Origin: Escherichia coli
GTDB taxonomy: Bacteria; Pseudomonadota; Gammaproteobacteria; Enterobacterales; Enterobacteriaceae
Length of the DNA stretch: 566 nucleotides
NCBI RefSeq assembly: GCF_003334785.1
Contig: NZ_QOWV01000082.1
Strand: one strand, 5' to 3'
The notes beneath the pieces were generated by a model. That model saw only the letters and a program-made list of their open reading frames with translations. It searched no databases and was not told where the DNA came from. Position numbers and translations under genes: made by a program. How positions within the stretch are numbered: position 1 is the stretch's first letter; every line of letters starts with the position of its first letter. Below, piece after piece: positions 1 through 566 of the stretch.

Positions 1-57
1 GTCCTTCATCGCCTCTGACTGCCAGGGCATCCACCGTGTACGCTTAGTCGCTTAACC
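1..57 (-). rRNA. rrl: 23S ribosomal RNA, 5' end (partial; gene continues beyond window start)
   Basis: Reverse complement of 1..57 reads GGTTAAGCGACTAAGCGTACACGGTGGATGCCCTGGCAGTCAGAGGCGATGAAGGAC, which I recognise as the canonical 5' end of enterobacterial 23S rRNA. The mature 5' end maps to window position 57. Lies downstream of tRNA-Ala on the same strand, as expected for an rrn operon. Confidence 0.93.
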
Positions 58-115
58 TCACAACCCGAAGATGTTTCTTACGATTCATCATCGTGTTGCG
101 AAAATTTGAGAGACT

Positions 116-140
116 CACGAACAACTTTCGTTGTTCAGTG
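116..140 (-). other. Spacer RNA hairpin: 7-bp stem with GAAA (GNRA) tetraloop, extended by 3 bp across a 1-nt bulge
   Basis: Seen directly: plus-strand gaacaac (119..125) / tttc (126..129) / gttgttc (130..136) is a perfect inverted repeat. In the minus-strand transcript the loop is GAAA. The stem can extend via c116-g140, a117-t139, c118-g138 with a137 bulged. Lies 3' of the boxA-like motif in the transcript. Function (processing or antitermination-associated structure) is inference. Confidence 0.55.
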
Positions 141-162
141 TTTCAATTTTCAGCTTGATCCA

Positions 163-177
163 GATTTTTAAAGAGCA
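163..177 (-). promoter_or_regulatory. boxA-like antitermination element of the rrn spacer (binding site for the NusB/NusE-containing antitermination complex)
   Basis: Reverse complement of 163..177 is TGCTCTTTAAAAATC, close to the boxA consensus (TGCTCTTTAACAA-like) known from rrn leader and spacer regions. Position between tRNA-Ala and 23S matches the known location of spacer boxA in E. coli rrn operons. Confidence 0.7.
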
Positions 178-240: not shown

Positions 241-316
241 TGGTGGAGCTATGCGGGATCGAACCGCAGACCTCCTGCGTGCAAAGCAGGCGCTCTCCCA
301 GCTGAGCTATAGCCCC
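241..316 (-). tRNA. tRNA-Ala (anticodon UGC), 76 nt with encoded CCA
   Basis: Reverse complement of 241..316 is GGGGCTATAGCTCAGCTGGGAGAGCGCCTGCTTTGCACGCAGGAGGTCTGCGGTTCGATCCCGCATAGCTCCACCA. It has the G3:U70 acceptor-stem pair characteristic of tRNA-Ala, a GGTTCGATCC T-arm and an encoded 3' CCA. Anticodon TGC is at window 283..281 (minus strand) in the loop cTTTGCAc. Matches the spacer tRNA-Ala of E. coli (alaT/alaU/alaV family); the specific paralog cannot be determined from this window. Confidence 0.97.
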
Positions 317-358: not shown

Positions 359-435
<77 letters not shown>

Positions 436-503: not shown

Positions 504-566
504 TAAGGAGGTGATCCAACCGCAGGTTCCCCTACGGTTACCTTGTTACGACTTCACCCCAGTCAT
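504..566 (-). rRNA. rrs: 16S ribosomal RNA, 3' end (partial; gene continues beyond window end), including the anti-Shine-Dalgarno sequence
   Basis: Reverse complement of 504..566 is ATGACTGGGGTGAAGTCGTAACAAGGTAACCGTAGGGGAACCTGCGGTTGGATCACCTCCTTA, the canonical 3' terminal domain of 16S rRNA. The anti-SD CCUCC is the complement of plus-strand ggagg at 507..511. The mature 3' end maps to window position 504. Confidence 0.95.

Follow-up and report, generated by a model that had tools for sequence, protein, structure and literature searches.

The spacer between tRNA-Ala and 23S rRNA in Escherichia coli contains a boxA followed by a hairpin that is maintained as a helix across genera. On the basis of cofolding and sequence comparison, this hairpin appears to be a branch on an extended helix between the 23S leader and trailer, beginning at the 3′ edge of boxA. 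Taken as a whole, the region is probably best explained as a boxA together with the central hairpin of the Rfam StyR-44 family, the hairpin forming the third arm of a junction in the long leader-trailer helix and the leader being excised later. The two elements are not new in themselves: the boxA is established, and the hairpin lies within the catalogued StyR-44 family.

Organization of the rrn spacer

The window, meaning the whole stretch of 566 bases that was analysed, is 100% identical to rrn operons in many E. coli genomes. In one identical E. coli record the gene order is gmhB, 16S, tRNA-Ile, tRNA-Ala, 23S, 5S, tRNA-Asp, dkgB. The window is an E. coli rrn 16S-23S spacer of the tRNA-Ile/tRNA-Ala type, and its sense strand is the minus strand. 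It contains the following genes, complete or in part:

504-566, minus strand: 3′ end of 16S rRNA (Rfam SSU_rRNA_bacteria, model positions 1471-1533, 61 bits; 16S is annotated in the identical E. coli record)
359-435, minus strand: tRNA-Ile (GAU) (ARAGORN; Rfam tRNA, 66.3 bits)
241-316, minus strand: tRNA-Ala (UGC) (ARAGORN; Rfam tRNA, 65.6 bits)
1-57, minus strand: 5′ end of 23S rRNA (Rfam LSU_rRNA_bacteria, model positions 1-57; 23S is annotated in the identical E. coli record)

The boxA and the hairpin are both located in the 183-nt spacer that separates tRNA-Ala (241-316, minus strand) from the start of 23S (position 57, minus strand). A scan of the window gave no promoter-like sites. Only four short open reading frames, of 26-66 amino acids, are found across the rRNA/tRNA spacer region, and two of these overlap tRNA genes.

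The spacer boxA and the hairpin upstream of it

Two features lie side by side in the upstream part of this spacer:

165-177, minus strand: spacer boxA, UGCUCUUUAAAAA, the NusB/NusE site according to the literature; one mismatch to TGCTCTTTAACAA
180-215, minus strand: boxB-like hairpin with a GCAA loop, directly 5′ of boxA (MFE and centroid folds of the spacer)

The minus strand at 163-177 reads TGCTCTTTAAAAATC. Within it, the 13-mer TGCTCTTTAAAAA (165-177) is one base away from the leader boxA consensus TGCTCTTTAACAA and is an exact match to the 9-mer consensus UGCUCUUUA(ACAA). For the boxA 13-mer with at most two mismatches allowed, the expected number of matches per window is 0.06, and any such match was seen in 11 of 200 shuffles. 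The motif occupies the place of a spacer boxA, in the 16S-23S spacer, after the spacer tRNAs and before 23S. Both the leader and the spacer of rrn operons carry boxB and boxA, with the boxA consensus UGCUCUUUA (PMC6614797; PMC4807359), and boxA is reported to bind NusB/NusE and to support 23S synthesis (Pfeiffer & Hartmann 1997, as cited in PMC4807359 and PMC6614797). The boxA-like motif that an earlier, sequence-only reading of this DNA had placed at 163-177 of the minus strand is therefore present and is the established rrn spacer boxA (PMC6614797; PMC4807359). Its suggestion that the motif would serve antitermination ahead of 23S agrees with the same literature. The spacer boxA itself is already textbook knowledge.

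Our search pattern fixed the first 10 bases of boxA (TGCTCTTTAA), leaving only position 11 free to vary. This position is A in the Escherichia/Enterobacter/Klebsiella/Citrobacter group, and also in Mangrovibacter and Rosenbergiella; it is C in most other Enterobacterales.

The boxB of rrn operons is placed 5′ of boxA and is reported to be dispensable for rrn antitermination (PMC6614797). A hairpin 5′ of boxA recurs in nearly all of the Enterobacterales spacers examined. The one at 180-215 consists of three stacked segments closed by the GCAA loop; among Enterobacterales the hairpins at this position fall into two sequence types, and are capped by GNRA or by UNCG-like loops (UACG, UUCG, UGCG). 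The region thus shares with the described rrn spacer boxB-boxA element (Berg, Squires & Squires 1989; Pfeiffer & Hartmann 1997) the same boxA sequence, the position between tRNA and 23S, and the adjoining upstream hairpin. However, the boxB of that element is 5′ of boxA, whereas the hairpin that concerns us here is 3′ of boxA, and is not that boxB.

The hairpin downstream of boxA is conserved as a helix

116-140, minus strand: hairpin downstream of boxA, with a core of 7 bp (119-136) and a further 3 bp on the other side of a bulged U; GAAA loop at 126-129

The minus strand at 119-136 reads GAACAAC-GAAA-GUUGUUC, which makes a perfect 7-bp stem. Pairing of CAC with GUG adds 3 bp across the bulged U, so that the hairpin spans 116-140. 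It begins 26 nt from the 15-mer at 163-177 and 28 nt from the 13-mer at 165-177. The 32-nt hairpin region has a folding energy of -11.4 kcal/mol (z = -3.6), a stability matched by 1 of 200 shuffles, and the same hairpin is present in both the MFE and the centroid fold of the whole spacer. In the isolated fragment the pair probability of the core is approximately 1.0, and the core also persists in the leader-trailer duplex state described below. The sequence-only reading had described a 7-bp stem with a GAAA tetraloop at 119-136, extendable to about 10 bp with one bulge and lying about 27 nt downstream of boxA; it reads, folds and measures as described, and folding of the minus-strand transcript, proposed there as a check, does form it.

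We surveyed the spacer using one genome per species and requiring both a boxA and a 23S start, which gave 89 spacers from approximately 12 Enterobacterales genera and several other Gammaproteobacteria. In Enterobacterales the hairpin is flanked by the conserved blocks AAGCUGAAAAUUGAAAC and GAGUCUCUCAA, and its own sequence is hypervariable. All 24 distinct variants anchored in this way form hairpins, of 8-15 bp, and 23 of them beat at least 99% of shuffles in stability.

Pairing was counted on two alignments: a sequence-only alignment of 20 variants of similar length, and a model-based alignment of 35 distinct Enterobacterales sequences. A MAFFT alignment of leader plus trailer was not used for this purpose, since both the hypervariable hairpin and the trailer segment of variable length come out scrambled in it. 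In the sequence-only alignment, 86.4% of cells are paired, against 27-56% for slid partners, and double changes occur in 7 of the 10 pairs. The covariation score is 0.522, compared to 0.233 when shuffled, and was reached by 0 of 500 shuffles (the shuffle controls compare sequences without a correction for phylogeny). The model-based alignment, which favours structure by construction but with which the sequence-only alignment agrees, has 86.9% of cells paired, double changes in 9 of the 10 pairs, and a covariation score of 0.590, against 0.222 when shuffled and at most 0.125 for slid partners.

Because the stem covaries across genera, it is selected, far beyond chance: the hairpin is kept by selection as a helix, and not for its sequence, its length or its loop. 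Stem-preserving covariation in the 119-125/130-136 stem, which had been put forward as a check of the hairpin, is thus found in both alignments. Short hairpins are common in AT-rich spacers, and with 1 of 200 shuffles of the 32-nt region equally stable the hairpin might be taken for a chance palindrome whose structure is unselected. The pairing nevertheless survives a complete turnover of sequence across some 12 genera, and the covariation counts already refute such a reading, which we find scarcely credible.

The loop behaves differently from the stem. A GNRA loop is present in 9 of the 24 distinct variants, and the other loops are of 3-7 nt and of varied sequence. The GNRA tetraloop, which the sequence-only reading had singled out, is therefore ruled out as a conserved feature.

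The hairpin also lacks the characteristics of an intrinsic terminator: its 7-bp stem contains 2 G-C pairs, it is followed by GUGAGUCUCUC, and there is no U-tract. No terminator-like sites were found in a scan of the window. We therefore rule out a terminator, as had been concluded previously from the missing U-tract.

In the nut sites of phage lambda, boxA is followed by a hairpin. The same order and the GAAA loop make the present arrangement resemble a lambda nut site, and the first hairpin after boxA in Halomonas is also GNRA-capped; on this reading the hairpin would be a nut-like boxB, with a GNRA-type loop 3′ of boxA, bringing a protein into the antitermination complex. A boxB of the lambda nut type has a short stem, only a few nucleotides 3′ of boxA, with a conserved GNRA-like loop. 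By contrast, only 9/24 enteric variants here have GNRA, loop size ranges over 3-7 nt, and the spacing is 26-28 nt. Furthermore, the known rrn boxB is upstream of boxA, where such a hairpin is found at 180-215, and boxB is reported not to be required in rrn antitermination (PMC6614797). We consider a nut-like boxB to be very improbable.

Two observations were made in passing on the surveyed sequences. In Halomonas and Billgrantia (L032, L033, L045, L050, L074, L086-L088), the first hairpin after boxA varies in sequence with its pairing kept; it is usually capped by a GNRA loop (GCAA, GAAA) and is followed by a second, conserved hairpin (GAUACG...CGUAUC). Two records, labelled 'uncultured Desulfovibrio sp.' (L070, 13648-13698) and 'MAG: Oxalobacter sp.' (L085, 12854-12904), have a hairpin-region spacer identical to that of E. 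coli (77.4 bits each), and are probably mis-binned Escherichia contigs.

Predicted pairing of the 23S leader with the 23S-5S spacer

The E. coli leader was cofolded with the 23S-5S spacer (the trailer), and the leader was found to contribute the following elements:

145-166, minus strand: distal 5′ strand of the helix, AAUCUGGAUCAAGCUGAAAAUU, predicted to pair with trailer +34 to +55 (GAUUUUCAGCCUGAUACAGAUU) (cofold with the cognate trailer, in other genera too)
98-113, minus strand: middle 5′ strand of the helix, UCUCUCA...UUCGC, predicted to pair with trailer +21 to +32 (GGCGGAUGAGAGA) (cofold)
80-94, minus strand: second small local hairpin, between the middle and proximal segments (cofold only)
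50-77, minus strand: proximal 5′ strand of the helix, comprising the RNase III stem (58-77) and 23S helix H1 (50-57) (cofold)

In the cofold, a continuous helix extends between the final bases of boxA and H1 of 23S. From distal to proximal, its segments are AAUCUG/CAGAUU, AUCAAGCUGAAAAUU/GAUUUUCAGCCUGAU, UCUCUCA/UGAGAGA, UUCGC/GGCGG, and finally the RNase III stem with H1. The hairpin downstream of boxA and the second small hairpin are side branches, and the layout is the same in other genera; the second hairpin (80-94) is variable in length and is absent from several genera.

The same elements were scored in 28 distinct leader/trailer cofolds from approximately 10 genera. The hairpin downstream of boxA is intramolecular in 27 of them. 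At least 8 of the 13 nt that follow the boxA core are paired with the trailer in 25, and at least 60% of the 3′ flank, which forms the middle segment, is paired with the trailer in 20. All three features are above these thresholds together in only 11 of the 28.

In the joint MAFFT alignment of leaders and trailers, which is good enough for counting the distal and proximal helices, the distal helices have 86-95% of cells paired, against 36-48% for slid partners. The proximal helix has 99% of cells paired and compensatory changes in four pairs, where the columns for 23S H1 are constants that we filled in. The middle segment has 60-73% of cells paired on the MAFFT alignment, which is an underestimate because that alignment scrambles the corresponding trailer segment. 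The energy of the distal duplex has a median z of -6.6, and in 26 of the 28 pairs 0 of 200 shuffles was as good. Most positions of the distal helix are invariant; its covariation consists of one clean swap, A-U in 11 sequences and U-A in 9 with none unpaired, which perhaps reflects a single evolutionary event, together with a few G-U changes. When leaders were combined with the trailers of other genera there was a modest preference for the cognate trailer. The preference is only modest because most of the distal strand is invariant, and it is weak evidence.

In five other gammaproteobacterial genera (six operons), leader-trailer pairing also reaches far up the leader: it starts within a few nucleotides of boxA in four of the six cofolds, and the branch hairpin is present in only two. 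The complementarity of leader and trailer is thus conserved and goes beyond what is expected by chance.

This pairing builds on the known 23S leader-trailer helix (Bram, Young & Steitz 1980; Liiv & Remme 1998; Gemler et al. 2024), which involves the same pairing of leader and 23S-5S spacer and has the RNase III cut in its proximal part. The published helix in E. coli is approximately 30 bp long (PMC8782170), whereas here some 35 further pairs are predicted, extending up to boxA and broken by the two hairpins. Neither boxA nor branch hairpins are mentioned in the main text of Gemler et al. (2024). A search for papers on a spacer stem-loop or on compensatory changes found none, a MazF paper contains nothing on the spacer beyond a citation, and the literature searched held no experiments on the hairpin. 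Beyond the proximal stem, the pairing seems to be indicated by thermodynamic prediction together with conservation, and the extended form is predicted rather than established.

Some leaders and trailers deviate from the general pattern. In Enterobacter sp. EA-1 (L041, L042, L043), one operon does not have the GGGUUGU just upstream of 23S that is part of the RNase III stem, and two other operons are one UCUC short in the conserved UCUCUC block and carry GCUGAGAAUU; such differences are either operon-level variants or assembly errors. Among Enterobacterales, the 23S-5S trailers (L001-L090) range from 64 to 433 nt in length, and some trailers of Photorhabdus and Xenorhabdus contain insertions between the GAGAGA and UUUCAGC blocks, some of which form hairpins of their own.

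Relationship to StyR-44

65-173, minus strand: full-length match to Rfam RF01830, StyR-44, covering positions 1-107 of the 107 in the model (score 124.9 bits, gathering threshold 54, E = 1.8e-21)

The hairpin downstream of boxA is the central stem of the RF01830 model, and this stem is the one for which covariation was found above. The sequence-only reading had not recognized the region as a catalogued RNA family. Its view of the hairpin as a possible structural or processing element of the pre-rRNA was right, and can now be sharpened to the central stem of StyR-44 and, on our prediction, a branch of the extended leader-trailer helix.

StyR-44 is a 109-nt RNA, cloned from S. Typhi, that lies upstream of 23S in all seven operons; the discovery paper reports it as detected on Northern blots and growth-regulated in S. 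Typhi and E. coli. Its discoverers described it as processed from longer precursors and possibly a maturation intermediate. It was found again as sYJ118, raised by tigecycline, tetracycline and ampicillin, also in Klebsiella, with the caveat that it may be a by-product (PMC3511261). Our sequence is a member of this family (RF01830, StyR-44 = sYJ118; Salmonella, E. coli), in the same operon position. We differ from the family description in that we question the outer stem as a conserved feature, and suggest that the RNA is an excised leader strand and not an independent gene.

The outer stem of the Rfam model pairs 145-154 with 98-107. If the Rfam fold were the functional structure of the pre-rRNA, the hairpin would sit in a purely local stem and the distal leader would not be engaged by the trailer. 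The MFE of the isolated 109-nt fragment does match the Rfam fold, with outer-stem probabilities of 0.53-0.94, Escherichia, Enterobacter, Klebsiella and Citrobacter all retain the outer stem, and only about 30 bp are given for the 23S leader-trailer helix in the literature (PMC8782170). Across genera, however, the outer stem is 72.1% paired compared to 70.2% in shuffles, with 48 of 500 shuffles as high; covariation is absent from it, and it is unsupported outside Enterobacteriaceae; and the stem is disrupted in Dickeya, Xenorhabdus, Tatumella, Mixta and Edwardsiella, even though its 5′ strand is unchanged there. In nearly all operons that strand has its complement in the trailer, to a degree well in excess of chance, and when the leader is folded alone with its upstream sequence the outer stem is absent from the MFE. 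The outer stem is therefore unsupported as a conserved partner of the 5′ flank of the hairpin (72% against 70% in shuffles, and broken in five genera), and we think it unlikely that the local fold is the functional one. The extended leader-trailer helix is our preferred structure for the distal leader.

A related observation concerns the 3′ hairpin of the StyR-44 model (66-93, minus strand), which makes use of 66-77. Since in the leader-trailer fold these nucleotides are paired to the trailer within the RNase III stem, that fold and the Rfam 3′ hairpin are mutually exclusive.

Naked pre-23S is cleaved by RNase III 7 nt before the mature end (PMC8708148); the cuts on the 5′ side are at +7 or +3. 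The '+7' cut falls between positions 65 and 64 of the window, and the upstream product ends at -8, which is position 65. This is exactly the last position of the StyR-44 model. The 5′ end of the model (173) falls inside boxA. Because its 3′ end lies at the RNase III cut, and because its conservation is explained by pairing with the trailer, StyR-44 most likely represents the leader strand set free from the 23S leader-trailer helix.

StyR-44 might instead be a genuine trans-acting sRNA, in which the hairpin is a stabilizing or functional module that is independent of rRNA maturation. Its detection on Northern blots, its growth regulation in S. Typhi and E. coli, and its upregulation by tigecycline, tetracycline and ampicillin, including in Klebsiella (PMC3511261), would suit an sRNA. 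Against this, both discovery papers warn of a by-product and the 3′ end coincides with the RNase III site. In addition, trailer pairing explains the conserved parts, the hairpin is hypervariable, unlike a seed region, and the papers searched give no target or phenotype. On balance an independent sRNA seems quite unlikely, and we continue with StyR-44 as the excised leader strand.

A possible role for the hairpin in the 23S leader

Based on the literature, NusB/NusE would bind boxA ahead of 23S transcription and nucleate the rRNA antitermination/chaperone complex there. The two conserved flanks of the hairpin would then pair mainly with the 23S-5S spacer, approximately 2.9 kb downstream, and not with each other. 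Since its flanks would pair with the trailer, the hairpin would form the third arm of a leader-trailer junction, in a helix predicted to run from the 3′ edge of boxA to the RNase III stem and 23S H1. We infer that the role of the hairpin is kinetic and organizing. As a local, fast-folding arm it may keep some 30 extra nucleotides of leader compact and inert, and by juxtaposing its two flanks it may allow a continuous stretch of trailer to zip across them. It would be folded before its flanks change partners and still be folded afterwards, and would thus be the constant element of the leader. RNase III cutting 7 nt upstream of 23S would release the leader strand, and the released fragment would refold to the shape of Rfam StyR-44, with the local outer stem and the hairpin, and become detectable as a metastable by-product. 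In the excised fragment the hairpin may provide stability.

In 16S, the antitermination complex promotes formation of the long-range helix (PMC10250234; bioRxiv 10.64898/2026.03.17.712431). There the 5′ strand of the leader-trailer helix includes boxC, and the gap between boxA and boxC is 18-19 nt (Warner et al. 2023, PMC10250234). Both arrangements have the leader strand of a long-range helix soon after boxA, a likeness that fits a boxA that tethers the leader strand near RNA polymerase until the trailer emerges. They differ in that 16S has a gap between boxA and boxC, whereas pairing in the 23S leader is predicted to start inside boxA, among its last bases, does not involve a GU-rich boxC, and includes a branch hairpin.

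A more elaborate mechanism would make a timed conformational switch of the leader that lies between boxA and 23S, with the hairpin as its hinge. During 23S transcription, the hairpin and a local stem specific to Enterobacteriaceae (145-154/98-107), which mimics the trailer sequence GAUUUUCAGC, would keep the leader strand protected in a placeholder fold, tethered to RNA polymerase through boxA and NusB/E. Some 2.9 kb later the trailer would displace the placeholder, giving a leader-trailer helix of approximately 60 bp that reaches boxA, and this may help to release the Nus complex. We regard a switch of this kind as doubtful, and favour the third-arm arrangement with subsequent excision.

Significance

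At the level of individual elements there is little here that is new, since boxA is textbook and the hairpin is within a curated Rfam family. The refinements are modest and partly predictive: the hairpin is placed as a branch on an extended helix, the outer stem of the Rfam model is found to be unsupported, and the GNRA loop is found not to be conserved. They bear on the annotation of the family. StyR-44/sYJ118 is still listed as 'Gene' and has been reported as a stress-induced sRNA, and both its 3′ end and a conservation that is explained by the trailer argue for an excised leader strand; the consensus outer stem in Rfam is unsupported beyond Enterobacteriaceae.

For the biology of the rrn operon, the complementarity of the 23S leader and trailer in Enterobacterales seems to reach as far as boxA, and to include a branch hairpin that is structurally conserved. 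The model in which a boxA-tethered complex delivers the leader to the trailer has so far been tested only for 16S, and complementarity that extends up to boxA in the 23S leader would be relevant to models of this type.
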